Source: a virus. From it: 64,000 nucleotides of DNA. Both the position numbers and the translations under genes were made by a program. Position 1 is the stretch's first letter, and the number at the start of each line of letters is the position of its first letter. A model generated the notes under the pieces. It saw only the letters and a program-made list of their open reading frames with translations. It was not told where the DNA came from and did not search any database. Positions 8,440-63,195 of this stretch are shown piece after piece. The stretch lies in IMG/VR virus record IMGVR_UViG_3300050821_006049. The stretch is one strand, 5' to 3'.

Positions 8440-8442
8440 GCG

Positions 8443-8757
8443 ATGTCCCAGCAGCCCGAGACCCTGCACCCCGGAACCTACATCAACCCCGACACCGGGG
8501 TCATCATCGCCGTTCGCGGCGGGCCGCCAAAGCCGAAGCCGCCGCCCGTCGTGGTGCTCGCCGCGCAGGCGATGCAACCGGCCTCGCCGACCGGCACGCA
8601 TTGGGATCAGGGGCTTTACCGGGATGCCATGCTTGACATGGCGGCACTCGCCATCGGCGTGCTTCAATACCCGACCGACGCGATGATGGCGGCCTTCCAC
8701 GACGCCACGCCGACGGAGTTCGCAAACGCCATCAGGATCGCGCTGGGGCTCAGTTGA
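8443..8757 (+). CDS. Hypothetical protein, second gene of the antisense cassette
   Basis: 104-aa ORF starting 3 nt after the previous stop. Pro/Lys linker 'GGPPKPKPPPVVV', motif 'YPTDAMMAAFHDATP'. Its 3' end overlaps the convergent gene 8750-9778 by 8 nt. Confidence 0.55.
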   Translation: MSQQPETLHPGTYINPDTGVIIAVRGGPPKPKPPPVVVLAAQAMQPASPTGTHWDQGLYRDAMLDMAALAIGVLQYPTDAMMAAFHDATPTEFANAIRIALGLS

Positions 8758-9778
8758 GCGATCTGCCATACCACGAGCTTACCTTGGATGGCATCGAATA
8801 AGCGCGGGCTCGGCGCATCATATTGGAATACAGACCGCCGGTGCGCTCGTTGTAGTAGGTCGCGGCAAGGTTGAGCACCGCCGGGTCGGCCATCGACATC
8901 ATTGCGAGGAACGCCGCATAGAACGGAACGGCGGCCGTCCACGGCGCGGGGATCAACTCGATGTCGGTGTCGGTCGCAAGGTCCAGCGGCAGGCACAGGC
9001 AATCGAGTTCCACCGGATAAGTCTGGTCCGGGTTTGGATACATATAGACCGAGCCTGCGGCACCCTGGCCGAATTGCGACCACCAAAACGGTGTGTAGAG
9101 AAAGTTTCCGTTTGTGTACGATCGCACGAGAGCCTGGAATTTCGAGAACGACAGGTAATTCCCCACATATCGCACATTGCTCCAGATGACCGCGATCGAC
9201 CGCACCGAAAGGATAGCCGCCGCTCCTGGCAACAATGTCTGGATCGGGATATCGATGAAGTTGATCTTCTCTTGGTTCTCCACGACCTGAGATGTGTATT
9301 CGAGTATCGCGCGACCCTGCGCGCCCGATCCGCTGGCGCCAAAACTCAACTGCTCGATGGTGATCTGCGGCGGGAACATATAGCCCTCGCCTGGATCGAT
9401 GACGGTGTAGCCGGTCACCTGCTGATTGGTCAGCACGGTCTCGACGGTCGGGCGGCGGCCAGGAAGATCGGGTAGAGTGAACAACGCGGAGGGAAAGTCG
9501 GTGTAACCCGAGCCGACGACCGATTGCGTCGCAATGATCGGGTCTCCGTAAATGTCGGTGATCGGCTTCCCGGTTACGTTGTCGATCAAAATCTGATCGG
9601 CCGGCACCACCGCGGAGACGCCTGACGAAATCGGCGTCAGAAAGCGGATACACTCGCCCTCGGCCGCGACTTGCTGGCGGGCGAGGTTGATATAGACATC
9701 AAGATCGAAGAGGTTGAAACGCTCCTGCTTCGGATCGCCGATCAGTCGCTGCACCTGTTGTCGATAGAAGTTCAGCAT
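8750..9778 (-). CDS. Virion structural protein, adaptor/tail-tube-A-like (342 aa), paralogue of 11475-12167
   Basis: Start moved to ATG 9776-9778 (MLNFYRQQVQRLIGDPKQERF...), 1 nt after the stop of the 72-aa gene. Shares N-terminal 'L..DP...........IN.AR.Q.AA...C.R' and C-terminal 'IP.PWT.AVP.(F/Y)AA(F/Y)L' blocks with the 230-aa protein. Central insertion contains GSGYT/GEGY. Confidence 0.6.
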   Translation of the reverse strand: MLNFYRQQVQRLIGDPKQERFNLFDLDVYINLARQQVAAEGECIRFLTPISSGVSAVVPADQILIDNVTGKPITDIYGDPIIATQSVVGSGYTDFPSALFTLPDLPGRRPTVETVLTNQQVTGYTVIDPGEGYMFPPQITIEQLSFGASGSGAQGRAILEYTSQVVENQEKINFIDIPIQTLLPGAAAILSVRSIAVIWSNVRYVGNYLSFSKFQALVRSYTNGNFLYTPFWWSQFGQGAAGSVYMYPNPDQTYPVELDCLCLPLDLATDTDIELIPAPWTAAVPFYAAFLAMMSMADPAVLNLAATYYNERTGGLYSNMMRRARAYSMPSKVSSWYGRSLN

Positions 9779-9779: not shown

Positions 9780-9998
9780 TCAGTGGTGTGGGGCTTTGGC
9801 GGCGGCGGCCTCGCAGGCCATGCGCTTGTCGTGCATGTCCGCCTGCTTCGCGCCAAACTCCATTCGGCGCGGGTCGGCGGGATTGGCCGCACGCTTAGCG
9901 TAGCTGCCCTCGACCACCTTCATCCCCATGCAGGGGTCAGAGGCAAAGGCCCTAGTAGCAAGAACAATACAAATTAACGTGGCTAAGATAAGGCGCAT
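9780..9998 (-). CDS. Small secreted protein (72 aa)
   Basis: MRLILATLICIVLATRAFA|SDPC... is a typical Sec signal peptide. AT-richer 5' end. Tightly packed between virion genes. Confidence 0.5.
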   Translation of the reverse strand: MRLILATLICIVLATRAFASDPCMGMKVVEGSYAKRAANPADPRRMEFGAKQADMHDKRMACEAAAAKAPHH

Positions 9999-10005
9999 AA
10001 CTACC

Positions 10006-11475
10006 CTAATTGTTACAATTGTACTTAACTAGGTAGTCTCCGGCCGGCAAGACCACCGGAGATGCCCAAAGAAATGCGACGTGGCTTGCCGGCCCGATTG
10101 TATCGTCCGCGCCACGCACGAAAGAATAGACGGTGAACGAGCCGGCATTGAAGCTAGGCCAAACCCCTGGCGACGGTCCGCCAATGGCTAGCGTAAAACT
10201 ACAGAGCCCGTTCAGGCCAGTGTCGCTAACCAAGATCGACGGGAAGCTCAGATAGAATGACCCAGTCGCCGCAGCGCTTGCCCCAGCCAGAATGTCAACC
10301 TTCCCAGCATATGGACCAGAGCCGTCTACAACCGAAACCGTTACGTTGCCGGTCGGCGAGGGAGAAGTTAGGGGGCATCCCACGTTACCGGCGACGCAGG
10401 GCGTGTTATAGCTATCGTCGCTGGCGTTGTTGATGCGCCCGCCGCTATAAAGAAAGCCAGTCCCACCCCCTCCTGGCCATTGCGGTGATTGCGTCAGGTA
10501 GAAAAGAAGCTGGCCGCCGTATTTTACTTGATACTCGTCGGTTACGACGGCGGTTCCCTGGAAAATGTTGGCCGGATTGATCTGGGTGATCGACGCCTCG
10601 ACATAGAACAGCGTCCCGAGCGTGGGGTTGCCGACAAAATTCAGATGGCCCGCGGATATCAGGCTGGACGCCCCCGAGCCGGAGACGGAGAGGAATGTCG
10701 CGTTGCCCGAGACGTTCTGATCGGCCCAAATCCCAAGATTGGAGCCGGAATTTTCGTTGTGCCAGATAGCAACGGTAGCCGGTCCCCAGGTGTTGCCGGC
10801 CAAGAGGTTGAGGGTGCCGCCGATCTGGACGAAGCCGGTTGAGCTACATCCCGATCCCGTGCCGCTGATCAGCGCCATGTTCATGATCGCCACCGTGGCG
10901 TGATCGCCGACGCCGATGGTGGCGCAGTCAGCGCTACCGCCGTTCCAATTCTCGGTGCCGCCGCCGTCGAAGATCAACTGCCCGCTATCTTGGACGGCAG
11001 GCGGGGCAATGGTCGGGTTGGGAAAGGAGTTGGCGCTTCCGAGCAACGGGCTGTTTACAAAGACGCTCTCATTCCACGTATTCGTCCCGCCAGCCAGCGC
11101 GTGAATTATGATATTCCCGCCCGCGGCGTTGAACAGAAAGGCGGAATTGACCGCTTGCGCCTTGGTCAAGCATGGCTGAGCGATGTAGATGCATAAATTC
11201 GTGCCGGAGCCCGGCGACCCACCATCATTTCCGAGCTGCGAGATGTAAAGATTGATCGGATTGCTGGTCAGGCCAAAGGCTCGGATATCGAGGACGCTGG
11301 AGAAGTACGGGCACCTGACCGTGGCGCCGCCTTGCGAGCACGGGACATATTCCGTGCCGAGGAGAGGCAGCAGTGCCGGCGCCAAGCATTGGATGCAGAT
11401 GCCGGATTGGGACAGCGCCACACCGCCGAAGCCCACCGCCATCATGGCGACCAAGGCCAGCAGGAATTTGCGCAT
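10006..11475 (-). CDS. Signal-peptide-bearing beta-helix-like protein (489 aa) inside the virion module
   Basis: Start at ATG 11473-11475 (ATGA overlap with the upstream stop): MRKFLLALVAMMAVGFGGVALS|QSGICIQCLAPALLPLLGTEYVPCSQGGATVRCP. The rest is G/N/S/T-rich with repetitive beta-strand-like segments (…NIIIHALAGGTNTWNESVFV…GNATFLSVSGSGASSLISAGHLNFVGN…), as in tailspike or pectate-lyase-type folds (inference). Confidence 0.6.
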   Translation of the reverse strand: MRKFLLALVAMMAVGFGGVALSQSGICIQCLAPALLPLLGTEYVPCSQGGATVRCPYFSSVLDIRAFGLTSNPINLYISQLGNDGGSPGSGTNLCIYIAQPCLTKAQAVNSAFLFNAAGGNIIIHALAGGTNTWNESVFVNSPLLGSANSFPNPTIAPPAVQDSGQLIFDGGGTENWNGGSADCATIGVGDHATVAIMNMALISGTGSGCSSTGFVQIGGTLNLLAGNTWGPATVAIWHNENSGSNLGIWADQNVSGNATFLSVSGSGASSLISAGHLNFVGNPTLGTLFYVEASITQINPANIFQGTAVVTDEYQVKYGGQLLFYLTQSPQWPGGGGTGFLYSGGRINNASDDSYNTPCVAGNVGCPLTSPSPTGNVTVSVVDGSGPYAGKVDILAGASAAATGSFYLSFPSILVSDTGLNGLCSFTLAIGGPSPGVWPSFNAGSFTVYSFVRGADDTIGPASHVAFLWASPVVLPAGDYLVKYNCNN

Positions 11476-12167
11476 CAGCGGCCTCCGGCTGAGGGGCCGA
11501 ACCCGGTATTTACGATCTTCGATGCGGCCTCGCGCGAAGCCCCGCCGCCGGGCGAGTAGAGCGGCAGCACGGTCGAGACGACCGCTCGCGTCCCCCACGA
11601 CATAAACTCGCCCCAGCGCTGCAAAAGGGCGAGCGCATCGGCGGTGCGCTGCTTGTCCTGATAGAGCAGGTACGCCGCAAAATACGGCACCGCTTCGGTC
11701 CAAGGATACGGGATGGCCTCGGGCGTCGTGTCATCGACCAAAATGACCGGACGGCCGATCAGGTCGAAACTCAGCGGATAGATGTTATCCGGGACGGGAT
11801 CGACGGAGATGGAGCCGAGCGGCCCCGGCTCTTGGATCGACCACATATTCGGGGCGCCGTGTGCCAAGGTTCGATAGGCAACGAACCACTCCCAAGGCCG
11901 ATACGCAAACTGCGCGCCTGAGATAAAACCTATCTGAGCGGTGAGGGCGCCTTGAACCCCGGTCTCGACCGAAAGGCCGGCAAGTGGATAAACCGCGCCC
12001 CCGACCGTCGTCGAGACGGCTCCAGTGTATCGAACGCAATGCGTGGCGGCGGCGATCTGACCGCGGCCAGCGTTGATCGCGGTGTCGACCTCCTGCGTCG
12101 AATAGACGGCGTTGGTAGGATCGTCCAGCAGCCTCAGCGTGACGATTTCATACGCGGTGAGCGCCAT
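11475..12167 (-). CDS. Virion structural protein, adaptor-like (230 aa), paralogue of 8750-9778
   Basis: MALTAYEIVTLRLLDDPTNAVYSTQEVDTAINAGRGQIAAATHCVRY...IPYPWTEAVPYFAAYLLYQ. Conserved N- and C-terminal blocks are shared with the 342-aa protein. Confidence 0.6.
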   Translation of the reverse strand: MALTAYEIVTLRLLDDPTNAVYSTQEVDTAINAGRGQIAAATHCVRYTGAVSTTVGGAVYPLAGLSVETGVQGALTAQIGFISGAQFAYRPWEWFVAYRTLAHGAPNMWSIQEPGPLGSISVDPVPDNIYPLSFDLIGRPVILVDDTTPEAIPYPWTEAVPYFAAYLLYQDKQRTADALALLQRWGEFMSWGTRAVVSTVLPLYSPGGGASREAASKIVNTGFGPSAGGR

Positions 12168-12174
12168 CGGATCA

Positions 12175-14024: not shown

Positions 14025-14052
14025 TACACCTGTTCCAGGGATCGGAATTGGA

Positions 14053-14661: not shown

Positions 14662-14664
14662 CCC

Positions 14665-15294: not shown

Positions 15295-15296
15295 GA

Positions 15297-15706: not shown

Positions 15707-15709
15707 TCA

Positions 15710-20226: not shown

Positions 20227-20227
20227 G

Positions 20228-48577: not shown

Positions 48578-51500
48578 TCAGAAATGATTGTCCGCGCCCC
48601 ACTGAACCTGCCCGTCGCTGTAGGTCGTGCTTAGCGGGGTTACATAAGGCGTCAGTTGGGTGATTGCCGTGTTCGCGTCGGTGCTAGTCCCGAGGACGCC
48701 GTTGAGCGCCTTGCGCCATTGCGCGGTGGCATACATCTCAGCCTCTTCCTCACCGTTCACGGCAGGATTGCGCCAGTCACCGGACGATGCCGCCGGACAA
48801 CTCGCATTAGCTATCGTCGCCACCCCAAAATCGGCGGTGATGTTCCAGGTCACGTAGGTTGTGCCGCCGGTGCAAACACCGCCCGAGATCGTTGGTTGTG
48901 TCGTGCTCAGTTGGCCAAATGCCGCGCCAGAAGCGTCCATGCAAAGCCAAAGCCATTGCCCATCGGTCACCTGTGGGGTCGAGGACGGTGGCCATCCCGA
49001 CAGCCCTTGGCTGGAGTCGCTCGGGCTCGTCTGATCGTGCCAATCAACGTCGGCGATGCTCATCCGCGTGCCGGACGCCAGCCGAGTTGTCGAGAAGATC
49101 GGATAGACCCACGGCCAACTCGCCGACACCACGATGCGGTCATTGATCGAGATTCCTGGCCCGGTCACCGGAGACGAGATCGAGATCGTCAGCCCCGAGG
49201 CAGGCGCGGTGACATAGGTCGGCCATGTAAGGGCGGTTGGATTGTCGAGATCCTTGATCACCCATCCCGTCGTTATCGGCCCGCTTTGCGGTGAGGTGAC
49301 GCTAGACAGCGGGATCGAAGTGCCTCCGGGTGACACCGGCGCGGTCGCCGTCGGCGTGAATGACCACGCTCCGGTGTTGCCGGCGGTTTCCAGCGACGCC
49401 GAGACGGTCGATGAACCATTTTCGGTGTGGATCGTATTATCGCCGGAGATTGGGCCATTCCCACGCTGGGGCGTTCCGGTGACCGTCGTCGCGTCCCATC
49501 CCGGTTGGGGCGATACATAAGGCGCGGTCTGGTGGGTGGTCGCATTTGCCCATTTGATTACATAGGCAACATTGTTGTAGGCGCAGGTATTGATAGCCGG
49601 GTTCTTGACCAAGTAGTTGTCCAGGAAATTGCGCGCAAAACCAGTGAGGTTGGCGTCGTTGCCGTTATCGAACATCACCGCCTCGTCGGTGTTCATGCCC
49701 CAATACAGTTGCATGAATAATGTATCAATTATTGACGAATTGTTCGGAACCGTAGTCCTGTAATCCTCCGGCGTCGCCTGATCGCCGTTGGCGGTATTGT
49801 CATAATACTTGGGGAACGGCCACACCGAAGCCCCCGCCGCCGCATCCCAGAAATTGCCGGTGCCTATGAAACTGTAGAAAGCGTAATTCATCGCGTAGTT
49901 GGTGGCAACGACGTGCTTGTAGTATTGGATAGAGGGCTCGTTCGGCGGCCCGAGATATGCCACCGGCACAGTCACATTTGCCCACCACGAGTTTTGCCGC
50001 GGAATGCTGCTGCTCATCCCTTGCGCATCATATCTCGTTCCGCCGAATGACAGAGATCGCGTGTTTCCATCGGTATTGGATGGCCCTAACGCCACCCCAT
50101 TCGCTTCGTCGATCCAATTCTCCAAGATGTACCGCTCAGCCTCGACCAAATAAATGCCGTGCTGGAACTCAGGCCAGTGCGATGTGTCGCCGTATCCGTC
50201 GTTATTCTCGATCTGTGTATTGGCCAGGGCCGGCTGGGCGGTAGTCGGAGACGGGACATCGCCCTGCCACATAAAATCATTGGGATAGCTAGCTGCCTTG
50301 TTGTACTGATCCATCACGAAATCCCAGGTATTGGAGTCCGTGAACGCCGCTGGCGGGGTATATCCGCTGCCTGAGTTGAAGTAATTTAACGGCAGTCCCG
50401 TGTCATCGTACCGCGGTCCATCCATCATGCCTGCCGTTGATTCGGCGGCAACTCTCATGTTTGCTAGATAGCTAACGCCGCCGTCGCTCGCACCGCCTTC
50501 GGCTGCCTGATACCAGTATGCCCAAGGCGATCCCATTGGCCCAAGGCCAATATGCCCAGAACCACCCGACCCAAATCCTGTCGTTGCGTCGGTCCCGCCA
50601 TGCTCATAGGGCGCATAGAGGTTCGTGTAATAAGGCGAGCCGAATGTCCCCGTCGTCGTCGTAAGCACGGCCGGACTGACCGTGATTGTGTTATTCAGCG
50701 GCAGAGCCGCCCGCGCGGCGTGGATGAAGGCGAGGTCGGCTGAGGCTGGGGAGACGACTACCTGCGCGAGAGCTTGGCTGTTCGGTGTGCTGTAAGTTCC
50801 TGTCGTCGTCGGCAACCACACTGGCCGGCCGGTTGCTCCGATCGCGCAGGCCTCGCATGGATCGAGCGCCGCCCACGAGCCGTTGACCTGCTGCTGGATC
50901 GCACACCATTTGTTATTTGAGCCGCCCTGCGCACAGCCGATGATCTCGGTCGAGCCGTTCTTGAAGTCGGCGTCGTAGACGACGTTCGGCCAGCCATTGT
51001 GGTTTTTATAGACTGAATTATCGGTAGTAATTACCGGCTTGATCGCATATAGACCGGTAGGTCCGGTCCACGCCTCGATGGTGAAGCGGAACCGCTCCCA
51101 GGCATCTTTGGTGCCGCTTACGTTGTCGCGGTATGCGCCGATGCCTCGATACGCCTTCACAGTCGGGCCGGAGGTGTAGACGCACAGGGCCGGGGTGGAC
51201 GTGGCCGATATCGGACCCGCTGCTAACGTACCCTGGATCGTCCATGTCGTGCCGCTGCCAGCCGTGATTATCGCAAGGTTGGTTCCGTCATCGACCATCT
51301 GTCCGATCGAGACCACGCCCGTCACGCTCGAAACCGTCATCGTCGAGCCGGAAAACGACTCCGTGAAGGCGGCTGCCCCTGGCATCGACGCACAACTCGA
51401 TGGATCGGTCGAGCCATAGGCGTTGAGGATCGTATCAATGTCGGCGGTCATCGCCCCGGAGCCGACCGCCGAAAAGCCACCGCCAGCCTTGATGATATTG

Positions 51501-52483
51501 ACGCCGGTTATGACATTGGAGCCATTCACGGTGACCGTGAAGGCCCCGTTGCTGGTTCCCCCGTGGATCGTGTAGCCAAATGCGAGAGTATCGCCGGAGG
51601 TAATATTCGCGGCGGCGTTGGCGGACATCGTTACCGTCTTTGCGCTGCTATTAAACGACAAAACCGTCGTGTTGTCCGGGATCGAGCTCGGATTCGTTAC
51701 GTCGATGATAGTGATTTGCTGGGGGTTGTTGAAAATGTACTGTGGCGGGACAGGGAGGCTGGAGAAAGTCAGGACCGCGCTACCTGACGATGTAGTCGTA
51801 CTGACAGACGCTTGGTAATTCGATGGTGTGATGCAATTCGCGCTACCCGACGTGCAGTTGAAGCCGAGCAAGCCTTGTGGAGCCGCCGCGGTCGTAGGCT
51901 GGTTCCTGACATACCCGCCAGAGATCGCGCCACCTGACACATAGAAACCGGGATAGGCCCCGTACCAGACTGATGGTCCCTGCGGACCCTGCTTCGTATA
52001 GGAACCGTTCATGTTGCTCAGCACGACCTTGAAGTCGCTCGCAGCAGCGATCGTGGCTGGAGTCACTGAGGATGATGTAGGGAAGCTGCCGGCCTGAACT
52101 GAAAAAGTAACTTGCTGACTGGCTCCCGACGCCATCTGTGGCACAAAGCCCGAGAACGGGCAGAACCTCAACGATCCGTCTGGCCAGAACGAGCACTGCT
52201 GGCTGTCGATCTGGGCGCTCGCGAGAGTAACGCCGCCGACCTTGGCAACCACGATATCACCGGATGGGACCGCGCCGGGCGGATACATCGTGCCGATATG
52301 CGTCGCGACCATCGTCGTGCCAGCGATCGTCGGCGTCGTCGCGCTGGCGATGTTCTTGACCGTCTGAGAGAAAACCACGCCAGACGACACAGAAGACGCC
52401 GCGCCGTGGCTCCCCAGCCGGAAGTGCGCCGACGCCGGAAGGCACAGCGTCAGCATGACGACGAGAAGACGCAGTATCAGCAT
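48578..52483 (-). CDS. Very large secreted protein (1301 aa): beta-rich N-terminal half, Trp/Tyr-rich central enzyme-like region
   Basis: Start at ATG 52481-52483: MLILRLLVVMLTLCLPASA|HFRLGSHGAASS. The central segment '…HWPEFQHGIYLVEAERYILENWIDEANG…SWWANVTVPVAYLG…FWDAAAGASVWPFPKYYD…' suggests a polysaccharide-active (lyase/hydrolase-like) domain, by inference only. Confidence 0.6.
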   Translation of the reverse strand: MLILRLLVVMLTLCLPASAHFRLGSHGAASSVSSGVVFSQTVKNIASATTPTIAGTTMVATHIGTMYPPGAVPSGDIVVAKVGGVTLASAQIDSQQCSFWPDGSLRFCPFSGFVPQMASGASQQVTFSVQAGSFPTSSSVTPATIAAASDFKVVLSNMNGSYTKQGPQGPSVWYGAYPGFYVSGGAISGGYVRNQPTTAAAPQGLLGFNCTSGSANCITPSNYQASVSTTTSSGSAVLTFSSLPVPPQYIFNNPQQITIIDVTNPSSIPDNTTVLSFNSSAKTVTMSANAAANITSGDTLAFGYTIHGGTSNGAFTVTVNGSNVITGVNIIKAGGGFSAVGSGAMTADIDTILNAYGSTDPSSCASMPGAAAFTESFSGSTMTVSSVTGVVSIGQMVDDGTNLAIITAGSGTTWTIQGTLAAGPISATSTPALCVYTSGPTVKAYRGIGAYRDNVSGTKDAWERFRFTIEAWTGPTGLYAIKPVITTDNSVYKNHNGWPNVVYDADFKNGSTEIIGCAQGGSNNKWCAIQQQVNGSWAALDPCEACAIGATGRPVWLPTTTGTYSTPNSQALAQVVVSPASADLAFIHAARAALPLNNTITVSPAVLTTTTGTFGSPYYTNLYAPYEHGGTDATTGFGSGGSGHIGLGPMGSPWAYWYQAAEGGASDGGVSYLANMRVAAESTAGMMDGPRYDDTGLPLNYFNSGSGYTPPAAFTDSNTWDFVMDQYNKAASYPNDFMWQGDVPSPTTAQPALANTQIENNDGYGDTSHWPEFQHGIYLVEAERYILENWIDEANGVALGPSNTDGNTRSLSFGGTRYDAQGMSSSIPRQNSWWANVTVPVAYLGPPNEPSIQYYKHVVATNYAMNYAFYSFIGTGNFWDAAAGASVWPFPKYYDNTANGDQATPEDYRTTVPNNSSIIDTLFMQLYWGMNTDEAVMFDNGNDANLTGFARNFLDNYLVKNPAINTCAYNNVAYVIKWANATTHQTAPYVSPQPGWDATTVTGTPQRGNGPISGDNTIHTENGSSTVSASLETAGNTGAWSFTPTATAPVSPGGTSIPLSSVTSPQSGPITTGWVIKDLDNPTALTWPTYVTAPASGLTISISSPVTGPGISINDRIVVSASWPWVYPIFSTTRLASGTRMSIADVDWHDQTSPSDSSQGLSGWPPSSTPQVTDGQWLWLCMDASGAAFGQLSTTQPTISGGVCTGGTTYVTWNITADFGVATIANASCPAASSGDWRNPAVNGEEEAEMYATAQWRKALNGVLGTSTDANTAITQLTPYVTPLSTTYSDGQVQWGADNHF

Positions 52484-54213
52484 GTTCCGCTGATCCCATA
52501 GGTCCATTGATCGAACAGGCACAGTGCCTGCCGCTGTGACGAGCTTGCTACTGTCGATGAGACTGCTGATGGGCCAGGGATGAAGCCCTGATCAGACCCG
52601 CCACCATACGTCATCCCAAACCCGAGAGGTATTTTCAGGCTTGCGTTCAGAAGCGTTCCTGTCGTCTCGGTTCCGTCAATCTTTAGTGTCGAACCATTCG
52701 TTGTTGAGCCGTTCAGTGTGCAGATCATGCTATGCAGGACACCGCCGGCTGCTGTCGATTCGCTGATCGTTCCGCCGCCGCCCGCACCTGGTCCGACGTA
52801 GCAGCTAGAGCCGCCCCCGTTCGTGAACGAGAGCTGAGCGATTGGATTGGATACGCCATTCGAGGAATTGAGGGCAACCACCGGGCCGCCGAACACACCA
52901 GTATTTTCCTCCGCATCTATCCATAGCGTCCCGGTCGTGCCGCTGCCATTGTACGCGGTGGGGTTCCACATGCCCCGATCAGTGCTGTTGCTGTTCGTCG
53001 GCGAGACCCGGGTGCCGTCAAATGCGTCGAAAAAGATAACTGGCTTCCGAGTAGTTATGCCCGCTCCGGTTGCCTGACCCCAGGTCGGCATGCAATTTGT
53101 CGGAGCGGTAACAATGCAGCCTGGACTGTTGCCGCTCTGATCGTAGGCAAGGTTGAGGTAACAGATTGACGTGTCACAGTCGCTCGCCAGCGTATTGTAA
53201 TCCATGTCGCCGTTAGTGAGCGCATTGATTGTGAAGAACTGGCCATCGCCCTCGCGCTGCACGAGCCAAATCGGATTTCCAGCCGTCGCATAAGCTGCGC
53301 TGATAGCATAGGGGCCAGTCCAGACAGGCCAAGTCATGCCCGTCGCACCGTTCGGGTAGGTCGCATCTCCTGGCCCAACATAAGCTCCCTGAGAGATATG
53401 GACATCAGCGACGAAAGACGATCCAGACGTTCCGATCATTCCCGTACCGACACCAGCCGCAGTCGCGGTGATATGGCAATTCGCTCCGCCTGCACCAGCG
53501 TTCGGCACGGTGTACGACGAGCTGAAAATCAGGTTGCTGCCCGAGATCGAGATGCCGGAAGCAGTACAAGCCGCATCGGCCCCGAGCGTGTAGGTCACGG
53601 CCGGTGGAGATCCAGCACCGCCGCAATGCGTCCAGCATATTGTGGTCGAAAGCGGCACCGTCTCGCCGACACCAGTCGTGTACTGAACGAAAAGCGGCCC
53701 AAAAGCGGTAAAGGTCGGGTTCCGCACCATGATCGAGAACGGCTGCGTAAACGACGCGCCGACCGGCGGAGTAGCCTTTACACAGATATAACTATGAGTC
53801 GGCGAGGCAGGATCAGCCTGTCCATAAATTTGAGCGGTACTGATGACGTTTAAGTTCGCGAGATCAACCGGGTCTGGACCGGAAGTGATAACCTGAAAGT
53901 CGTTGCTTGATGCACTGCATGAAATAGGAACGCTGCCATCCGAGGACGCGCCTGAATTGACCATAGAAAACGTGCAGCCGACGCAAGCCCCGCCGCCCGT
54001 CACCTTGGCGGTCAACGGGCCGATGACATGGCCGCTCGCTGCGCTCACTGGCAGGTTTTCGTTCCCGAGCTGAACCGAGATAACGTTGGTTGCGCCGCCT
54101 CCAGAGCCCTGACCGCCATGCGATGCCAGTCTGAAATGCGCCGCGACTGGCAGAGCATTCAGCGCGAGCGCAGCGGCCAAGATAATAGTGGCTATGAACT
54201 TAAATGCTGGCAT
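52477..54213 (-). CDS. Secreted protein (578 aa): Ig-like N-terminal region + GH54-like/concanavalin-like C-terminal domain
   Basis: MPAFKFIATIILAAALALNALPVAA|HFRLASHGGQGSGGG. The C-terminal 'IWLVQREGDGQFFTINALT…DCDTSICYLNLAYDQSGNSPG' parallels the GH54-like paralogues downstream. Confidence 0.6.
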   Translation of the reverse strand: MPAFKFIATIILAAALALNALPVAAHFRLASHGGQGSGGGATNVISVQLGNENLPVSAASGHVIGPLTAKVTGGGACVGCTFSMVNSGASSDGSVPISCSASSNDFQVITSGPDPVDLANLNVISTAQIYGQADPASPTHSYICVKATPPVGASFTQPFSIMVRNPTFTAFGPLFVQYTTGVGETVPLSTTICWTHCGGAGSPPAVTYTLGADAACTASGISISGSNLIFSSSYTVPNAGAGGANCHITATAAGVGTGMIGTSGSSFVADVHISQGAYVGPGDATYPNGATGMTWPVWTGPYAISAAYATAGNPIWLVQREGDGQFFTINALTNGDMDYNTLASDCDTSICYLNLAYDQSGNSPGCIVTAPTNCMPTWGQATGAGITTRKPVIFFDAFDGTRVSPTNSNSTDRGMWNPTAYNGSGTTGTLWIDAEENTGVFGGPVVALNSSNGVSNPIAQLSFTNGGGSSCYVGPGAGGGGTISESTAAGGVLHSMICTLNGSTTNGSTLKIDGTETTGTLLNASLKIPLGFGMTYGGGSDQGFIPGPSAVSSTVASSSQRQALCLFDQWTYGISGTC

Positions 54214-55252
54214 AAAAGTTCGTCAGGTAAGTGTAGATCGCTGTAGGCAATCCACCAACAGCCGACACGTCATTGGAAGTAACCGCCATATCGCGGAACC
54301 AGTACGGTCCGCACGAGGTCAAATCACCGGAGCATCCAAGATTCACTCGGCTTTGGGTGTTGATCGTTTGAAGAGGAGTAAAATTAGTGTCGCCCTGGAT
54401 GTTGTTGAACCAATCGTTTATTAGATTGGTGCCGCCGCTGTAGGTGATGACCCCAACGCCCGAGACAGGAGTGCTGTTCACAAAGGTTCGTCCTCCTCCT
54501 CCGCCACCCTCGTCGTCATAGTTGTAGTTTGTTGATCCCGCAGGGACTGGACTGCCAGTGAACCAGAACTGCGCTAACATCGATCCGCTGACAATGGGGA
54601 TCGGCCGCGTCGGATTGGAACCGCTTCCATTTTCACCGAAACCAAACTGGCCACAGCACAGCGATCCATAAGTGCTGTTCGTGTAAAATATCAGGCTCTT
54701 CGCGGCAGCGCCTGCGACGGCCGAGCATCCAAACCCGGTCAACCATCCCGTTGTAGCGCCGACTGTACCGTTGCTGACCGTGGTTTGGATGATGACCGGG
54801 AACCCGTCAGCGAGCCATGTTTTGAAAGGGGGGCGCTTGTTCGTCTCAAGCGCTAGCAGATTACACGTCCCCTTCTGATCGTAGAGATCGGTGAACGTAC
54901 AATCGTTGTACTGAGTGTAAGTCGCCGTCGTTGTGGTCGTGCCACCATTGGCGAGACAGAAAGTCGTCGCAGCGGACACGTTGACGACGAAATTACTCCC
55001 GGTATAGCTGGCCTCGAAGACCGCGCTATCACTCGTCCGAGTAAGTTGAAACGGATCGGTGTTCGTCGAGTTAAGACGATGCGTGACGGACCACGCGTAA
55101 ACGCAGGGTACATTCGTCTGCGAACAGAGGTCGCTATAAGCAACCGCGCCGTTACCACCGCCTCGCAGCAGCAACGCCTCCGCCGGGTCAACGGCGGAAC
55201 ATATAATCGCTGCAACCAGCGCGATAAAGAGAGCAGAGACAGTACGGGTCAT
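54200..55252 (-). CDS. Secreted GH54-like (alpha-L-arabinofuranosidase-B catalytic-domain-like) protein, paralogue A
   Basis: MTRTVSALFIALVAAIICSAVDPAEA|LLLRGGGNG. 'PCVYAWSVTHRL…PFQLTRTSD', 'FCLANGG…CTFTDLYDQKGTCNLL', 'LCCGQFGFGENGSG' and 'LGCSGDLTSCGPYWFRDMAV' are colinear with fungal AbfB blocks as I recall them. 11 Cys. Confidence 0.55.
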   Translation of the reverse strand: MTRTVSALFIALVAAIICSAVDPAEALLLRGGGNGAVAYSDLCSQTNVPCVYAWSVTHRLNSTNTDPFQLTRTSDSAVFEASYTGSNFVVNVSAATTFCLANGGTTTTTATYTQYNDCTFTDLYDQKGTCNLLALETNKRPPFKTWLADGFPVIIQTTVSNGTVGATTGWLTGFGCSAVAGAAAKSLIFYTNSTYGSLCCGQFGFGENGSGSNPTRPIPIVSGSMLAQFWFTGSPVPAGSTNYNYDDEGGGGGGRTFVNSTPVSGVGVITYSGGTNLINDWFNNIQGDTNFTPLQTINTQSRVNLGCSGDLTSCGPYWFRDMAVTSNDVSAVGGLPTAIYTYLTNFYASI

Positions 55253-56313
55253 CGCAATGCGTTGTAAATTTGTGACGGCAAACCAGCGGTCAACGACGCA
55301 TCGATGTTAAGTATTGCCATCCCCCTAAAATAGTTGTTGTTACACAGCGTATAATCACCAGAGCAGCCAATAACTATCCCGTCCTGAGTGTTGACCGTAG
55401 TAAATGGGGCACAGTTAGCTGGCCCCGTCTGTGAATTATTGTACCAAATGTTTGAGCCGCCAGCAGTAGAGCTATAGGTGATAACTCCAGTAACGTCTAT
55501 TGTCGGAGATGTAGAAAATGGAGAGCCGGCAACACACAACGCGCCGCCCTCAATATCCGTATCATAATCAGAAAAGCCTCCACTTACAAAGAACTCGGTA
55601 TTCATCGCCGAGCCAGAAGGAACGTTGCCGGGCGCTGGGTTGGTCTCAATTCTCCCATATTCACCGCTGGCATGAGTGACATCTCCATAGAAGGCGTTGC
55701 TTCCTCTACCTATTAAGGTTCTGGCGGCGCCACCATCGGCCAACGTACAGCCGTTGCTGAAGAGGTATTTAGCCGCCGGACTGGTATATGGGACCGCAGG
55801 CGATCCAGCTATGCCAGTCCCCGGTGTGATAATAGCCAGCGTTCCATCACTCGTGCGAACCTGAACGAGCGGCGCGTGAGCCGTCGCGCTGGTCAGATTA
55901 TAAGGCGCGCCAGCTATCAGATCGCAGCCCATTCCTGTTTGATTATAAATGGTTGTGTAAGTGCAATCATTATACTGAGTACTATAGGTTTGGGCTGTCG
56001 TAGTGCCCCCGTTCCCAACGCAAAATGCTGTTACCGCGCTAACATTAACCGAGAAAGTGCCTCCAATATAGCTGCCGTTAAGCGTCGCGCTGTCACTAAT
56101 GCGAGTAAGTTTGAATGGCACGGCATTCGAGCTTACTCGACGCTGGTTCAGGTCATAGGCGTAGATACATGATCCGGCGATAAAGGACTGTGAGCAAAAA
56201 TCAGTGTATCCAGCCGCCCCGCCCTTCAGTAACAGCCCTAACGCCGGAGCGACAGAGAAAGACAGCGCCACAGCGACAAGGAGTGATCCTATCCCAAGAA
56301 TGGAACGCATCAC
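55249..56313 (-). CDS. Secreted GH54-like protein, paralogue B
   Basis: MMRSILGIGSLLVAVALSFSVAPALG|LLLKGGAAG. 'SCIYAYDLNQRR…PFKLTRISD', 'FCVGNGG…CTYTTIYNQTGMGCDL', 'IGCSGDYTLCNNNYFRGMAI'. Clear paralogue of 54200-55252. Confidence 0.55.
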   Translation of the reverse strand: MMRSILGIGSLLVAVALSFSVAPALGLLLKGGAAGYTDFCSQSFIAGSCIYAYDLNQRRVSSNAVPFKLTRISDSATLNGSYIGGTFSVNVSAVTAFCVGNGGTTTAQTYSTQYNDCTYTTIYNQTGMGCDLIAGAPYNLTSATAHAPLVQVRTSDGTLAIITPGTGIAGSPAVPYTSPAAKYLFSNGCTLADGGAARTLIGRGSNAFYGDVTHASGEYGRIETNPAPGNVPSGSAMNTEFFVSGGFSDYDTDIEGGALCVAGSPFSTSPTIDVTGVITYSSTAGGSNIWYNNSQTGPANCAPFTTVNTQDGIVIGCSGDYTLCNNNYFRGMAILNIDASLTAGLPSQIYNALR

Positions 56314-56314
56314 T

Positions 56315-57997
56315 TCACTGTACCGAAAACTTCATGACCCGACCCGCCTCGGTCGTCCAGGTAGAGCCTCCATTCGAGCTAAAGCTTTCGACGCCACCCG
56401 AATAAGCGCCGGTGTCGTTATAGGCGAATGTGTATCCTCCTGCCGTATTTGTGGGGCTGCTGAACGCCACCGCATACTCAGTCCCCGCTATTAGCGACAG
56501 AGAACTGAACGTGAAGGTGACACGCTGTGGTGCCCACGAGAATGCGGCCGACGCAAGCGTTTGCGTGGCGAGAGCGCTTCCAGTGGGATGGTGCGACCCG
56601 TCAACTGCGAATAGTGTGGCAGTGAGCCCCGCCGTCGGCCCCGTGCAGCCGGTGTTGACTTTGCATAGCCGGTTGGCTTGGCCCGTCGTCAACACGAAAT
56701 TGATTGATGATAGGTTCGTAGGGGCAGTAAAACTCTGAGCCCTTTGATAAGGCGGCGACAAATCTCCTTCCCCAAGGTCCGCGCTTTGGGTCGAGCCTTG
56801 TTCCCAATATGCTACTCCAGACAGACCCTCCGAGCCTGTCTGCGCCCCCGCCCAATATGGGGTCGGCACGGGGCCGGCGGGCAGCGTGATGCTATTCGAT
56901 GGGGCGCATGTGATCGCGTTGAGAGCGCTGCCGGTGAATGCGAAGACGGCCCAATAGATATTGTTAAGTGCCTGATTCCCGAGGCCCGGTGTGGTGCCAC
57001 TGAGAGCTTGCGCCCATCTATCCGGCAGGTATAGCACCTGGGTTCCTGGGATGGCAGTGGGTGTCCCCCCGCCGTTTTGGCCGGAGCAAGAATTTGAGTT
57101 TAGTGCAGTGATCCCGGACCATGCAGACAGCGGAGAGGTCGAGCTGATGTAGTCGGTCGCCGCGATGAAGTATTCCGCAAGAGGTCCGTATGTGATGTAG
57201 TATGTGCTGCCAACCACGAACAACCCGACACCTTCGCCGGTCACACCAGTATCAAAGTCGCTCCCCGTCGCGTCGGTGAATGACGAGTTCAGCTCCTGCG
57301 CAAAGATATGCCGGCCGCTATTGTTGTTTGAGTAGGCAATCCACGCATTCCCTGATCCATCTATCGCCAGAGAATAATCCCCGTTCGCGTTCGCCGATCC
57401 GCCGTGACCGAGATGCGCTGGCGCAGTTGCGGCCGCGCAGCCATTGCTGGTCATCTGGGCTACGCTAGCACAGGTCCATACCATATAGCTTTGGTTCGTG
57501 CCCTGAGCGCCATTAATCCAGATGACATAGTTATTATTCGCGGCGTTGAATAATATGACGGTGTTGTAGCATCCCGGAAACACAATCGGCGAGGTAGCTG
57601 TCGGACTGCAATTAGCAGCCACCGGAGACCCGGTCGGGTCGAAGGGCTGGCCGAGGAACTGGAATTGTGGATTGCCGTTAGCGTCTGCCCACACTTGGTA
57701 GATGTTAACGCCGCAATACACCCCGTTATTCTGTATGCTCTGGCCGCATCCGTTGGCGTCGCCATACAGATAAGCAGTAGTGCCGACTTGCAAGATGCGG
57801 GCGTCGCTTACATCGATAGAGTTCCCATTTATGTCGAATTGGTGGATCTGGGTACTGGTGAGAGATGACACGTAATTGTGTATCGTGGCGGCGTGATATG
57901 TAGATCCACCTCCAGACGCGCGCGTCAGCAACAACGCCGACGCCGGAGCGACGGCGAGGCACAGCAGCGCAGCTAGGAGCCATCGGCACAGCATCAT
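56315..57997 (-). CDS. Secreted GH43-like beta-propeller candidate + C-terminal beta-sandwich (560 aa)
   Basis: MMLCRWLLAALLCLAVAPASA|LLLTRASGGG. Blade-like repeats 'ARILQVGTTAYLYGD', 'NIYQVWADANGNPQFQFLG', 'NTVILFNAANNNYVIWING', 'DYSLAIDGSGNAWIAYSN', 'GEGVGLFVVGSTYYITYG' and 'LYLPDRW' resemble GH43/five-bladed-propeller patterns (inference). Confidence 0.5.
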   Translation of the reverse strand: MMLCRWLLAALLCLAVAPASALLLTRASGGGSTYHAATIHNYVSSLTSTQIHQFDINGNSIDVSDARILQVGTTAYLYGDANGCGQSIQNNGVYCGVNIYQVWADANGNPQFQFLGQPFDPTGSPVAANCSPTATSPIVFPGCYNTVILFNAANNNYVIWINGAQGTNQSYMVWTCASVAQMTSNGCAAATAPAHLGHGGSANANGDYSLAIDGSGNAWIAYSNNNSGRHIFAQELNSSFTDATGSDFDTGVTGEGVGLFVVGSTYYITYGPLAEYFIAATDYISSTSPLSAWSGITALNSNSCSGQNGGGTPTAIPGTQVLYLPDRWAQALSGTTPGLGNQALNNIYWAVFAFTGSALNAITCAPSNSITLPAGPVPTPYWAGAQTGSEGLSGVAYWEQGSTQSADLGEGDLSPPYQRAQSFTAPTNLSSINFVLTTGQANRLCKVNTGCTGPTAGLTATLFAVDGSHHPTGSALATQTLASAAFSWAPQRVTFTFSSLSLIAGTEYAVAFSSPTNTAGGYTFAYNDTGAYSGGVESFSSNGGSTWTTEAGRVMKFSVQ

Positions 57998-58962
57998 TCA
58001 CCGCGAAGTCGTCGGATCGCGTCCTTGCGCTGACGCAGCCAGCGTTCGGCCGTAGCCACGCCGCCAAGCCCGACAGTCAGCGGCGCGAGGATCATCGCCT
58101 TGCTTGTCGCCGTACCAGTGGGCGGTGTGCTGGCTGGTTGTTCAAGCACGTCATAAACGACATCAATAGGCCATCGCAGCAGTGAATAAGGATTTGCATT
58201 CAGATAAGCATGTTCCCCAGCCGTTAAAAATCTGTTGCCCCATGCATAAGCAACGGTCGCCACCATGCTGCCTGTTCGAGTACTGCTCTGAAACTCTTGA
58301 AGAGTAAACTGCCCATTGGCATTCCAGTTCGCGAGTGGAGACACCATTACCGACGGGCTCCCTTGGAGCACCTGCTGGATACCATTCACATAAAGCGAAG
58401 GAAGCGCGCCTGAAACGAACGACGCTCCGGCCGAAACCATAGATCCCACAACCGGCACCGTTGTCCCCGCAGGCAACGCTGTGGTTGTGGTGTTAGTTGG
58501 GTATGCAACACCAATAACACTGTCGGACGGAGCTGGTTGATCGGGAGCAGCCAGTAGAGCAAGCTGAAGAAAGTTCGTCGTATTTATATAGAAACCAAAC
58601 ATCTGGGCGGGCGCAGTGCCAGTATTTATAGGCCCCCACTTTCCTCGGATGAACAGCGACACCGCGCCTGTTGGCGGGTTAGCTACAAAATTCGCTGGAA
58701 GCCCAGATGTGTTTGCCTGGCCCAAGATGCCATTAAGGCCTGGCCCCTCTGGAGTGTTCACGTTATATGAGTTTGCGTTGCGGCGTACCGTTAGATCCAG
58801 TAGCCCCGGAACAGCTAAATTTGTCATTGTGCTGCCAGGGAAGGCGGCCGGATAAAACGCAGCCAATAGTCCTTTCGCTAATGGATGAGAACGCGCAACT
58901 ACCGGGATTGTGCCCGTCATCGCGCGTCGAGAGATCGACGCGTATCCGGTAAGAAAAGCCAT
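57994..58962 (-). CDS. LamG/concanavalin-like jelly-roll candidate with C-terminal hydrophobic-basic tail (322 aa); no signal peptide
   Basis: Start at ATG 58960-58962 (MAFLTGYASISRRAMTG…), after the upstream stop at 58970. '…GAVSLFIRGKWGP…SMVSAGASFVSGALPSLYVNG…' is LamG-like. The tail is 'AMILAPLTVGLGGVATAERWLRQRKDAIRRLRGE'. Confidence 0.5.
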   Translation of the reverse strand: MAFLTGYASISRRAMTGTIPVVARSHPLAKGLLAAFYPAAFPGSTMTNLAVPGLLDLTVRRNANSYNVNTPEGPGLNGILGQANTSGLPANFVANPPTGAVSLFIRGKWGPINTGTAPAQMFGFYINTTNFLQLALLAAPDQPAPSDSVIGVAYPTNTTTTALPAGTTVPVVGSMVSAGASFVSGALPSLYVNGIQQVLQGSPSVMVSPLANWNANGQFTLQEFQSSTRTGSMVATVAYAWGNRFLTAGEHAYLNANPYSLLRWPIDVVYDVLEQPASTPPTGTATSKAMILAPLTVGLGGVATAERWLRQRKDAIRRLRGE

Positions 58963-58969
58963 CAGAGGA

Positions 58970-59530
58970 CTAATTGTTGAGGTTGATGTTGTAGGTGCGA
59001 TAGAGCAGAGTGTTGTTGCCGCCAGTCGCGCTGAGCGCAGCACCAGAACTATTAAAGACAGCGATCCGAAAACTGCCGGGCGGAATGATAATGCCGGTGC
59101 ATGTTCCTGCCAGAGTCGTGGTCGCACCCGCCGTCTCTTGTGGCATAGAGCAGACGAGTCCGGCCGCAGGCGCTCGGGTGATCGTCGCGCCAGAAGCCAT
59201 TTCACCAGTTCCATAGGTCGTGCCGTTGCTATTCAGCGGCATCAGATAGACGCCGATATACGCCCCGGCAGGAGGGGTGGCGCTGCCTACCGTCCATACG
59301 CCGCCTAAATCCATGAACTGGTCTTGCGCGGTTTGGTTAGTGATATCGGCGGCACTCGAAAGGACAGTGCTGCCGTTGGCAAGCGAAGTCATGTCGCCCG
59401 AGGCCATGACCGCAGTCCATGTGTACCCAACGCCGTTACCGGCGGTCCATGCCGAACGCGCCGCAGCGTGTGCTCCTTGCGCAGCAATCAGCGCAAAAAC
59501 GCCGGCAAGCAGAAGTCTTTTCAGCATCAC
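58970..59530 (-). CDS. Secreted beta-sandwich protein (186 aa)
   Basis: MMLKRLLLAGVFALIAAQGAHA|AARSAW…. '…PPAGAYIGVYLMPLNSNGTTYGTGE…GSFRIAVFNSSGAALSATGGNNTLLYRTYNINLNN' looks like a jelly-roll, receptor-binding-tip-like character (inference). Confidence 0.55.
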   Translation of the reverse strand: MMLKRLLLAGVFALIAAQGAHAAARSAWTAGNGVGYTWTAVMASGDMTSLANGSTVLSSAADITNQTAQDQFMDLGGVWTVGSATPPAGAYIGVYLMPLNSNGTTYGTGEMASGATITRAPAAGLVCSMPQETAGATTTLAGTCTGIIIPPGSFRIAVFNSSGAALSATGGNNTLLYRTYNINLNN

Positions 59531-59537
59531 CTTACCC

Positions 59538-62447: not shown

Positions 62448-62448
62448 T

Positions 62449-62811
62449 TTAGTTCACCAAAAGACAGCTAGAGGTATCCCCTCCGACGAGAACGCAGCTT
62501 GTCGTATCACCGCCGGTCAGCAACACACCCGGCGTGCTTCCCCCACCACCGCAGGCCGTGCAATTCGGCAGGCCCGTCGTCGGGTCATAGCCGCTGACGC
62601 ATCCGGTAGGGGGCACGCATTGTACGGGCGAGAGGCCGCGCGCCAGCGGGCAGGCAACGGTAGCGCCCCCTTGCGCGCAAGGCACAAGCTCGTTCCCGGT
62701 GAGCGGCATATGCGCCCTAGGGAGACATTGGATGCAGACCCCGTTGGGGTTTTGCGCGAAGGCAGCCCCGGCGCTCGCGAGGAATATCAGGATGAGCGCG
62801 AGGCGTCGCAT
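62449..62811 (-). CDS. Secreted Cys-rich small protein (120 aa) sharing the CIQCL…QGGATV.CP motif with 10006-11475
   Basis: [19 protein letters not shown]|[36 protein letters not shown]…. 12 Cys in total. Its stop lies 1 nt before the fibre gene ATG. Confidence 0.6.
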
Positions 62812-63195
62812 TCAGCCCACGAGATATTTGTAGAACGAGATATCGAGGACCGGGCTACCCGTCGCCGGGATGAAGTCGATCCGTCCGAGATTCCCCTGAT
62901 AGGTGAAGGTCGTCCCTGTTAAAACCAGCATGCCGACACTTGAGGTCGGCGCCGTACCATCATCTCGCCAGCGCACATTCTGCGTCTCGACCGTGATCAT
63001 CGCGACGACAGCGCCGTCGGGGATGCCGCCGGAGCAAGCGGTTAGCAACGTCGCCCCGCTGAGAGTGAGCTGACAGAAGCCAAGGGGGATGAGCGAGGTT
63101 GGTTGCGTGGGTAATTGCGCCCGCGCCGGTGAGATCCCGAATAGGATAAGAGCAAGAACCAGAACGCAGCGACGGATCACGGCTTGCCCCACCAT
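62812..63195 (-). CDS. Secreted beta-sandwich protein (about 122-127 aa)
   Basis: ATG 63193-63195 (MVGQAVIRRCVLVLALILFGISPARA|QLP…) or GTG 63178-63180 (GTGA overlap). The His/Arg-rich upstream part of ORF 62812-63411 was discarded. Confidence 0.5.
   Translation of the reverse strand: MVGQAVIRRCVLVLALILFGISPARAQLPTQPTSLIPLGFCQLTLSGATLLTACSGGIPDGAVVAMITVETQNVRWRDDGTAPTSSVGMLVLTGTTFTYQGNLGRIDFIPATGSPVLDISFYKYLVG

Follow-up and report, generated by a model that had tools for sequence, protein, structure and literature searches.

The virus record IMGVR_UViG_3300050821_006049 of IMG/VR, analysed here over a stretch of 64,000 nucleotides (the window), encodes among its virion genes a protein of 489 amino acids (aa), p489, and directly downstream a protein of 72 aa, p72. 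Sequence comparison and a structural model indicate that p489 is probably a tailspike-type receptor-binding protein made up of a signal peptide, a docking motif, a beta-helix and a beta-sandwich. Its docking motif contains four cysteines (Cys), is found again in a 120-aa protein of the same genome, p120, and is, as far as sequence can tell, a Cys-bearing variant of the classical N-terminal docking motif of tail fibres. We incline, by a little, to the view that p489 is a Sec-exported, disulfide-bonded tailspike which docks to the virion, with p72 as its partner and with p120 docking to the same type of site. Receptor-binding proteins set the host range of a phage and are assumed to fold and to join the tail in the cytoplasm. 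A broader proposal is made more tentatively, namely that there may be an undescribed but widespread class of receptor-binding proteins that are exported by Sec, fold with disulfide bonds in the periplasm and are added to the particle at lysis, a two-compartment assembly represented here by the tailspike and a 15-kb fibre-like set. In some members of this class a small exported protein such as p72 would be the dedicated partner.

A four-cysteine motif common to p489 and p120

The motif comprises 33 residues and begins 2-6 residues past the predicted cleavage site, at precursor residue 24 in p489 and 23 in p120. The two strings are as quoted in an earlier reading of the window made from its letters alone (the sequence-only reading): 22 of the 33 positions are identical and all four Cys are aligned. 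A motif as short as this, in two proteins that are both rich in Gly, Ala and Cys, might owe its similarity to chance or to amino-acid composition. However, BLASTP of p489 against p120 with composition adjustment gave an E-value of 2e-14, the match being confined to the N-terminal 57 aa (28 identical). Smith-Waterman alignment of the mature parts only scored 127 against a maximum of 75 among 5000 shuffles of p120, so that no shuffle reached 60% of the observed score and the likeness stands clear of its compositional background. A degenerate DNA pattern of the motif, for which 0 matches were expected, matched just the p489 and p120 genes in the window, and an independent profile of the Cys-free form of the motif, described below, selected exactly the same two proteins. 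These four results refute a chance origin, the probability of which we regard as negligible. Different codons are used at 13 of the 22 identical residues and the DNA is identical at 65 of 99 nucleotides. The similarity therefore reflects an old paralogy held by selection on the peptide and no recent copying.

The complete four-Cys motif was not found elsewhere by a word-index protein search with motif alignment, nor in IMG/VR by back-translated patterns or a custom degenerate pattern, in JGI metagenome contigs by the full pattern or in GenBank phages by tblastn. A relaxed DNA pattern lacking the CxxC did find two partial relatives, in two unrelated contigs, L027 and L030. Both proteins have a signal peptide and then the classical motif with just the equivalents of Cys46 and Cys55 (...GGELLPCVQGGVTRRC... 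and ...GAEQFPCVQGGSTKQC...), and the L027 protein, encoded on a 106-kb contig of a metagenome-assembled genome, occupies a tail-fibre slot that follows baseplate genes. Since the Cys46/Cys55 pair occurs alone in these proteins, the comparison suggests that Cys46-Cys55 forms one disulfide of the p489 motif and Cys27-Cys30 the other.

Kinship with the docking motif of tail fibres

According to the sequence-only reading, many alphaproteobacterial phage fibres and tailspikes start with a Cys-free motif of similar form. Such a motif does exist. The protein P0066, which lacks a signal peptide and is homologous to the body of p489, begins with MGVAISQLPAGSAPNGTEVFPAVQNGQTVKL. This peptide matches proteins annotated as tail fibres, likewise at their N-terminal ends, in Erwinia, Salmonella and Ralstonia phages. 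Weaker matches, in Rhizobium and Cronobacter phages, are hypothetical, minor tail or tail-fibre-repeat proteins. A profile of eight classical Cys-free fibre N-termini (A6) was aligned by hhalign with the four-Cys pair at a probability of 91% and an E-value of 9.5e-7 over 31 columns. When a hidden Markov model (HMM) of these eight motifs was run over the 1360 six-frame open reading frames of the genome, the two best-ranked were p120 (E 3e-5) and p489 (E 0.03), in this order, and the third had an E-value of 5.8.

The classical motif, I-x-x-L-P...G-x-E-x2-P-x-[VI]-Q-x-G-x-T-V-K, is exemplified by gp22 of ΦcrAss001 and gp306 of Erwinia phage Special G. The spacing of its G, E, P, Q, G, T and V, written G-x-E-x2-P-x2-Q-x-G-x-T-V, is identical in the four-Cys form, the motif lies near the (mature) N-terminus in both, and the profile-profile match is significant. 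Unlike the classical form, the motif of p489 and p120 stands behind a Sec signal peptide, and its four Cys occupy positions at which the classical form is variable or hydrophobic. A looser version of the motif had also been claimed for the 969-aa fibre-like protein encoded next to p120 (p969). Neither BLASTP nor the classical-motif HMM gave any match there and p969 was rejected as a carrier of the motif.

A search of the PDB with the classical-motif profile matched residues 28-51 of the ΦcrAss001 tail fibre gp22 (PDB 7qoj) with an E-value of 0.002. In the ΦcrAss001 virion, residues 1-26 of gp22 are held in the tail docking hub (PMC10172136). The motif lies directly beside these residues and hence at the base of the fibre, where fibre meets tail. 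By analogy with gp22, the motif of p489 and p120 may bind to a tail hub, adaptor or baseplate.

Fold and relatives of p489

The beta-helix that the sequence-only reading had seen in p489 was borne out by an AlphaFold2 model computed from a 64-sequence alignment (predicted local distance difference test score, pLDDT, 84.9; predicted template modelling score, pTM, 0.82), in which strands run throughout residues 61-350. The best matches of the model in Foldseek were phage tailspikes and tail fibres. Those in the PDB were tailspikes, though weak (E ~1e-3, TM ~0.2), and the best match among predicted viral structures (BFVD) was a protein of Acidovorax phage ACP17 (1.9e-8). The linker between beta-helix and beta-sandwich contains a Cys pair of its own, 360/367.

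Word-index searches with p489 returned only itself and one protein of 54% identity, P0002. An exhaustive profile search with p489 and P0002 gave 155 relatives at E<=1e-3, 71 of them at E<=1e-10, and 152 member proteins were retrieved; the family alignment is referred to as A4. A search with the family consensus found members in an uncultured podovirus and in the cultured Acidovorax phages ACPWH, ACF1, AP1 and ACP17. Most of these members are annotated as tail fibre or tail protein (the annotation for ACP17 being that of the RefSeq copy), while that of AP1 is hypothetical. The family HMM matched the ACPWH, AP1 and ACP17 proteins with E-values of 1e-30 to 1e-32 and the podovirus tail fibre with 5e-35; all four are without a signal peptide and have 4-7 Cys. 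The ACP17 gene lies near 122 kb, and there is no family member in the first 50 kb of that genome. Directly downstream of the AP1 member is an annotated tail fibre assembly gene, and the proteins encoded downstream in ACPWH and ACP17 resemble its product. One further member of the family has a T7 tail-fibre N-domain.

The Acidovorax tail fibres (ACPWH AXY83381, AP1 UIS65496, ACP17 ASD50471) thus have the beta-helix body in common with p489, and their loci, like that of p489, have a small gene directly downstream. In the Acidovorax phages this gene encodes a Tfa-type chaperone (annotated so in AP1 only) that lacks both a signal peptide and Cys, whereas p489 combines a signal peptide with 12 Cys and p72, its partner, is predicted to be exported and is unrelated to Tfa. 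Beta-helix tailspikes (P22, Sf6, HK620, phi297 gp61, Acinetobacter and Klebsiella depolymerases) likewise combine a right-handed beta-helix with a C-terminal beta domain and, like p489, are encoded among tail adaptor genes. p489 differs from them in its weak structural match, its lack of a Pfam match, its lack of assignable catalytic residues and its predicted export.

Signal peptides and paired cysteines

As the sequence-only reading had stated, both p489 and p72 begin with a classical signal peptide, having n-, h- and c-regions and a small-x-small cleavage site. Signal peptides were called by our own heuristic, which requires a positive n-region, a hydrophobic h-region of 8-20 residues and small residues at -3 and -1. 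The scan was positive for p489, p72, p120 and nine further late proteins; p969 scored under its threshold and was added by visual inspection. Signal peptides are absent from the core virion proteins (portal, head, adaptors and the 749-, 472-, 675- and 600-aa proteins), which contain 0-5 Cys.

The hydrophobic N-terminus could in principle remain uncleaved, p489 then being a cytoplasmic tailspike in which CxxC...C...C either binds metal in the manner of a zinc knuckle or is oxidised after release. The family speaks against this. Signal peptides with canonical n-, h- and c-regions are present in ~100 of the 152 members, mostly with A-x-A before Gln, and the mature N-termini that follow are unrelated to one another. 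Homologues without a signal peptide start exactly at the predicted mature start of the signal-peptide forms. In the protein P0014, for example, the signal peptide is directly followed by the N-terminal domain that starts at residue 2 of the tailspike of the cultured Xanthomonas phage PBR31 (2e-19), and the P0014 copy of this domain has an extra C..C pair. The lone Cys46/Cys55 pair of the signal-peptide proteins of L027 and L030 also fits a disulfide and not a metal site with four ligands. That virions assemble in the cytoplasm, that the ΦcrAss001 tail is disulfide-stabilised yet not exported, and that a CxxC with two further Cys is a common zinc-binding arrangement would all suit an uncleaved N-terminus, but on this evidence we think it improbable. 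The expectation that homologues carry signal peptides held for most of the family and failed for the fetched Acidovorax phage members, none of which has one.

The Cys counts are also tied to the presence of a signal peptide, and this too counts against an uncleaved, metal-binding p489. An even Cys count was reportedly used by Dutton et al. in 2008 as a criterion for disulfide-bonded exported proteins. The mature Cys count is even in all 12 signal-peptide proteins considered in the genome, namely p489, p72 and ten proteins of the run 63560-48578 (2 to 18 Cys; binomial p = 2.4e-4), and in 69 of 78 signal-peptide members of the family (p = 7e-13). Across the family alignment the Cys of each of the p489 pairs 95/102, 184/210, 360/367 and 425/487 are jointly present or absent. 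The 95/102 pair is absent from all seven members that lack a signal peptide, and the other three pairs are mostly absent from them as well; the T7-type and classical-motif proteins are among these seven. The Cys of the docking motif agree with this tendency. Export and disulfide bonding of proteins of the p489 type are in this way supported indirectly, by features of sequence. The sequence-only reading had taken the motif for an N-terminal fibre module in an exported variant stabilised by disulfides. The homology of the module is upheld by the hhalign match, and export and disulfides by the indirect signs of signal peptides, even Cys counts and co-variation.

Gene slots and small partners

The genes for P0027 and P0033 lie behind Phage_Wedge1 and Sheath_initiator baseplate genes and that for P0015 adjoins a terminase gene. 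The most telling case is a pair of orthologous ATP-grasp genes (38% identity, 2e-92), one of which has P0066, without a signal peptide, directly downstream and the other P0023, with one; both contigs have a Phage_stabilise gene upstream. It appears from these arrangements that signal-peptide forms take the slots of signal-peptide-less fibres. The feature seems, on sequence grounds, to be more general than the p489 locus and to consist of exported, disulfide-paired tail fibres or tailspikes that keep canonical docking modules.

Signal-peptide genes among tail genes can also be morons. Lambda Lom is one example (PMC12309495). T5 Llp and Cor are others, and in this location p489 and p72 resemble all three. 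However, those are small outer-membrane proteins or lipoproteins with expression signals of their own and without fibre homology. Neither p489 nor p72 has a lipobox or a Cys at +1 of the cleavage site. There is no GC island around p489 (GC content 0.57-0.62 vs 0.605 for the genome), no promoter-like site was found there and terminator-like sites were at chance level, and a moron was therefore rejected.

In p72 the signal peptide is followed by xDPC...AC..AA.KA with two invariant Cys. On contig L001 the gene for P0002 is followed by one for an 83-aa signal-peptide protein homologous to p72 (E 1e-4), and on L024 the gene for P0023 is followed by one for a 119-aa p72-like protein. The three small proteins align over the signal peptide, x-D/Q-P-C, a helical Ala/Arg/Lys-rich stretch and A-C-x2-A-A-x-K-A. 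The L001 cassette is located after a gene for a 708-aa protein and before a DUF6496 gene (L001 4272-4511), which corresponds to the region downstream in the present genome. Given this shifted location, the tailspike and p72 genes form a cassette that moves as a unit. The 708-aa protein upstream of P0002 was considered as an orthologue of the 749-aa protein of the present genome, but this was not supported. The position of the p72 gene is that of the tail fibre assembly-type gene in the cytoplasmic relatives, and p72 is for this reason proposed, by analogy and with low confidence, to serve the spike as an assembly or latency factor in the periplasm. On L024, an unrelated 70-kb phage contig, the same layout of a signal-peptide tailspike and a small signal-peptide partner (10001-21653) continues with proteins of 1313, 65, 490 and >1090 aa, all of which have signal-peptide starts.

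p120 has 10 Cys in 101 mature residues, and its gene ends one base before the start codon of p969. The second Cys-rich module of p120, ending in CTACGG, is common with the protein P0004, whose N-terminus resembles a membrane anchor in place of signal peptide and motif. A plausible role of p120 would be that of a small docking adaptor for the fibre-like proteins encoded downstream.

Attachment to the virion or action on the envelope

The route by which an exported p489 might reach the particle can be outlined as follows. p489 would be made as a Sec preprotein, the cleavage of which would place the four-Cys docking motif at the mature N-terminus, and its beta-helix and beta-sandwich would bear four more Cys pairs. 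p72, in the gene position of a fibre chaperone, would be exported together with p489 as a dedicated small partner, and p120, with its docking motif, would head p969 within a run of ten exported Cys-rich proteins. Because the docking motif is common to p489 and p120, both most likely dock to the same kind of site. The proteins would fold oxidatively in the host periplasm as disulfide-bonded trimers and would not meet the cytoplasm-built tail until lysis breaches the inner membrane. In this they would be comparable to the tailspikes of P22 or the fibres of T4, which can be added to finished particles in vitro.

Several points weigh against such a route. The virions of tailed phages assemble in the cytoplasm, and until lysis a protein in the periplasm is on the wrong side of the inner membrane. 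Literature searches yielded no precedent for tail fibres of tailed phages that are exported by Sec, and no signal-peptide-bearing member of the family was found in 50,697 GenBank phage records. The tail of ΦcrAss001 is stabilised by disulfides without export, and disulfides in a virion thus need none (PMC10172136). In addition, our signal peptides come from the heuristic and not from SignalP, residues 1-60 of the p489 model are disordered or of low confidence, and the AlphaFold2 model of p120 (pLDDT 38) is unusable.

The compartment problem vanishes if export of p489, p120 and the signal-peptide proteins downstream leads not to the virion but to action on the envelope or the surroundings of the infected cell. 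They might destroy or mask receptors (for superinfection exclusion, or to keep progeny from sticking to debris), remodel exopolysaccharide or be displayed as adhesins. The mosaic adhesive trimer (MAT) fibres of Bdellovibrio are a precedent for the last of these, being Sec-exported and phage-fibre-like, with a conserved common module right after the signal peptide and variable distal parts (PMC10769870). They differ from p489 in being chromosomal, displayed on the surface of a predatory bacterium and encoded outside any virion gene block, and their N-terminal domain of ~130 aa is unrelated to the docking motif. WceF of Pantoea, a bacterial enzyme with a phage tailspike-like fold (PMC7949094), may be a further cellular precedent. 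The phage itself has other envelope-directed genes, for a protein with signal peptide and PEP-CTERM tail and for a weakly Wzy_C-like membrane protein, and ~15 kb of consecutive signal-peptide genes are more like a secretome than a simple fibre set. On the other side, purifying selection has kept the docking motif, a motif of virion-bound fibres, in two otherwise unrelated proteins. Moreover, signal-peptide members replace signal-peptide-less fibres in orthologous slots and follow baseplate genes, and p489 is translationally coupled to an adaptor gene, without its own promoter or terminator. With Pfam or PHROGs, no fibre or spike lacking a signal peptide was obvious in the genome. We therefore consider a purely secreted role, the main rival, to be rather unlikely, and attachment of p489 to the virion is placed somewhat ahead on account of the conserved docking motif, the orthologous slots and the lack of an alternative fibre in the genome.

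The family thus contains two forms of one tailspike, a cytoplasmic Cys-poor form in the cultured phages and, by prediction, a signal-peptide, disulfide-paired form in most metagenomic members, which occupy the same gene slots and have the same docking modules. If the exported forms are parts of the virion, there would be an unrecognised step in virion assembly, infectivity would depend on the Sec and Dsb systems of the host, and a possible failure of such proteins in cytoplasmic expression for biotechnology would be explained. If they are not, phages would be secreting copies of their fibres to act against the envelope of the host, which would also be new. In either case a signal peptide, an even Cys count and the docking motif can serve as markers for sorting metagenomic phage fibres.

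Genome organisation and neighbouring genes

The positions of the features are collected in Table 1. As noted in the sequence-only reading, p489 and p72 are encoded between two adaptor genes that are paralogues. The 342-aa protein matches Pfam SU10_adaptor (PF24175) with 37.4 bits, the cutoff being 27, and BLASTP aligned it with the 230-aa protein in two segments (5e-10 and 3e-8). Upstream of the 230-aa gene are the gene for the major head protein (phrog_9953) and other virion genes. The junction of the 230-aa gene with p489 had been given as an ATGA overlap. It reads GCTGATGCG on the minus strand, and the TGA stop (11477-11475) and the ATG (11475-11473) have a single base in common (TGATG).

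Table 1. Positions in the 64,000-nucleotide window of p489, p72, p120 and associated genes and segments.
Feature	Position	Strand	Remarks
p489 gene	10006..11475	minus	ATG at 11475, stop at 10006; 489 aa, 12 Cys
p489 Sec signal peptide (predicted)	11410..11475	minus	residues 1-22, MRKFLLALVAMMAVGFGGVALS, with QS after the cleavage site
p489 docking motif	11308..11406	minus	residues 24-56; Cys 27, 30, 46, 55
p489 beta-helix body (model)	10426..11295	minus	right-handed, ~residues 61-350; co-varying Cys pairs 95/102, 184/210
p489 C-terminal beta-sandwich (model)	10009..10353	minus	~residues 375-489; Cys pair 425/487 inside
p72 gene	9780..9998	minus	72 aa; starts 7 nt past the p489 stop
230-aa adaptor-like protein	11475..12167	minus	phrog_10775 tail protein match; BLASTP paralogue of the 342-aa adaptor
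342-aa SU10-type adaptor	8750..9778	minus	PF24175; ATG after a one-base spacer behind the p72 stop
p120 gene	62449..62811	minus	signal peptide, four-Cys docking motif, second Cys-rich module, short repeated tail
p120 docking motif	62647..62745	minus	residues 23-55; Cys 26, 29, 45, 54
p969 gene	59538..62447	minus	fibre-like, signal peptide, 18 mature Cys, docking motif absent
11-gene run	48578..63560	minus	10 genes encode signal-peptide proteins with an even Cys count

The Logan contig L004, which carries p120, follows the window to ~63,949, adds 1,279 bases that are absent there and re-enters the window near 170. The genome unit is 65,279 bp, and independent assemblies of 65,420 and 65,309 bp correspond approximately to this unit plus the k-mer overlap of the assembler (141 and ~31). 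A copy of the same genome in ENA has a different permutation. The read-through of both window ends, the unit length and the permuted copy together indicate a complete circular, or circularly permuted, phage genome. The 51 kb by which the sequence-only reading had separated p489 from the second motif gene was an artefact of linearising this circle: p120 is ~12.5 kb downstream of p489, on the same strand and in the same late block. What had been called a distal secreted operon is the downstream continuation of this block. The phage is a new podovirus-like phage, a 65.3-kb circular assembly. Close relatives of the phage or of p489 were found neither in GenBank phages, by DNA or protein, nor in GTDB genomes, and Pfam and PHROGs gave no match for p489, p72, p120 or p969.

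In minus-strand order p489 is followed by p72, the 342-aa adaptor, two opposite-strand genes, and genes for proteins of 749, 111, 202, 472 and 675 aa (the last Phage_lysozyme2). Over the junction of the circle the order continues with 600, 86, 195 and 46 aa and a 61-aa DUF6496 protein, and then with 127, 127, p120, p969, 185, 322, 560, 354 (340 aa in the Logan annotation), 350, 578 and 1301 aa. The two small plus-strand genes (151 and 104 aa; 7984-8757), between the 342-aa adaptor and the 749-aa gene, are alone in breaking the late block. The 749-aa protein (5660-7909, minus) has internal Gly-rich repeats and matches many PHROG repeat families of the virion structural, baseplate and head closure kinds; it may be the nozzle or else a tail protein that bears fibres and lacks a signal peptide. 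The 600-aa gene, with a weak tape-measure-like PHROG match, straddles the window ends (1 / 64000), and the small DUF6496 gene (63557-63742, minus) lies just upstream of the signal-peptide run.

The signal-peptide proteins of the run 48578-63560 are those of 127, 127, 120, 969, 185, 560, 354, 350, 578 and 1301 aa; the 322-aa protein is its sole member without a signal peptide and has no Cys. Pfam and PHROGs gave nothing useful for the late signal-peptide proteins other than p489, p72, p120 and p969, and only the first 127-aa protein had weak PHROG matches, mostly of function unknown. The 350- and 354-aa proteins (54200-56313, minus) are paralogues (38% identity, 7e-63), in both the 578- and the 1301-aa protein (48578-54213, minus) the signal peptide is immediately followed by HFRLxSHG, and an LLLxxG start is common to the 560-, 354- and 350-aa proteins. 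The late signal-peptide proteins may have further common N-terminal modules.

Away from the run, a 215-aa protein (24663-25310, minus) has a signal peptide and a PEP-CTERM sorting tail (LPEPQTLGLLAFGLLALWGWLNRNRR; Pfam 20.1 vs cutoff 20.7), which suggests a host with an exosortase system. The 346-aa protein at 23436-24476 (minus), encoded just upstream of the terminase block, has a weak sub-threshold match to Wzy_C (O-antigen ligase-like), and its gene adjoins two small signal-peptide genes, one at 25321-25767 and that of the PEP-CTERM protein. A plus-strand gene (32977-33573) encodes a protein with a twin-arginine-like signal (TRRSVFGLGASLALVSAASARA, followed by AP), several Cys and no family match.

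Directly upstream of the major head gene is an HNH_3-like endonuclease gene (14053-14661, minus) with a GC content of 0.50-0.55 vs 0.605, which looks like a mobile insertion. A GH25 muramidase (37408-38007, plus; Pfam 6e-30), without a signal or signal-arrest-release (SAR) sequence and on the strand opposite to the late block, is likely to be the endolysin.

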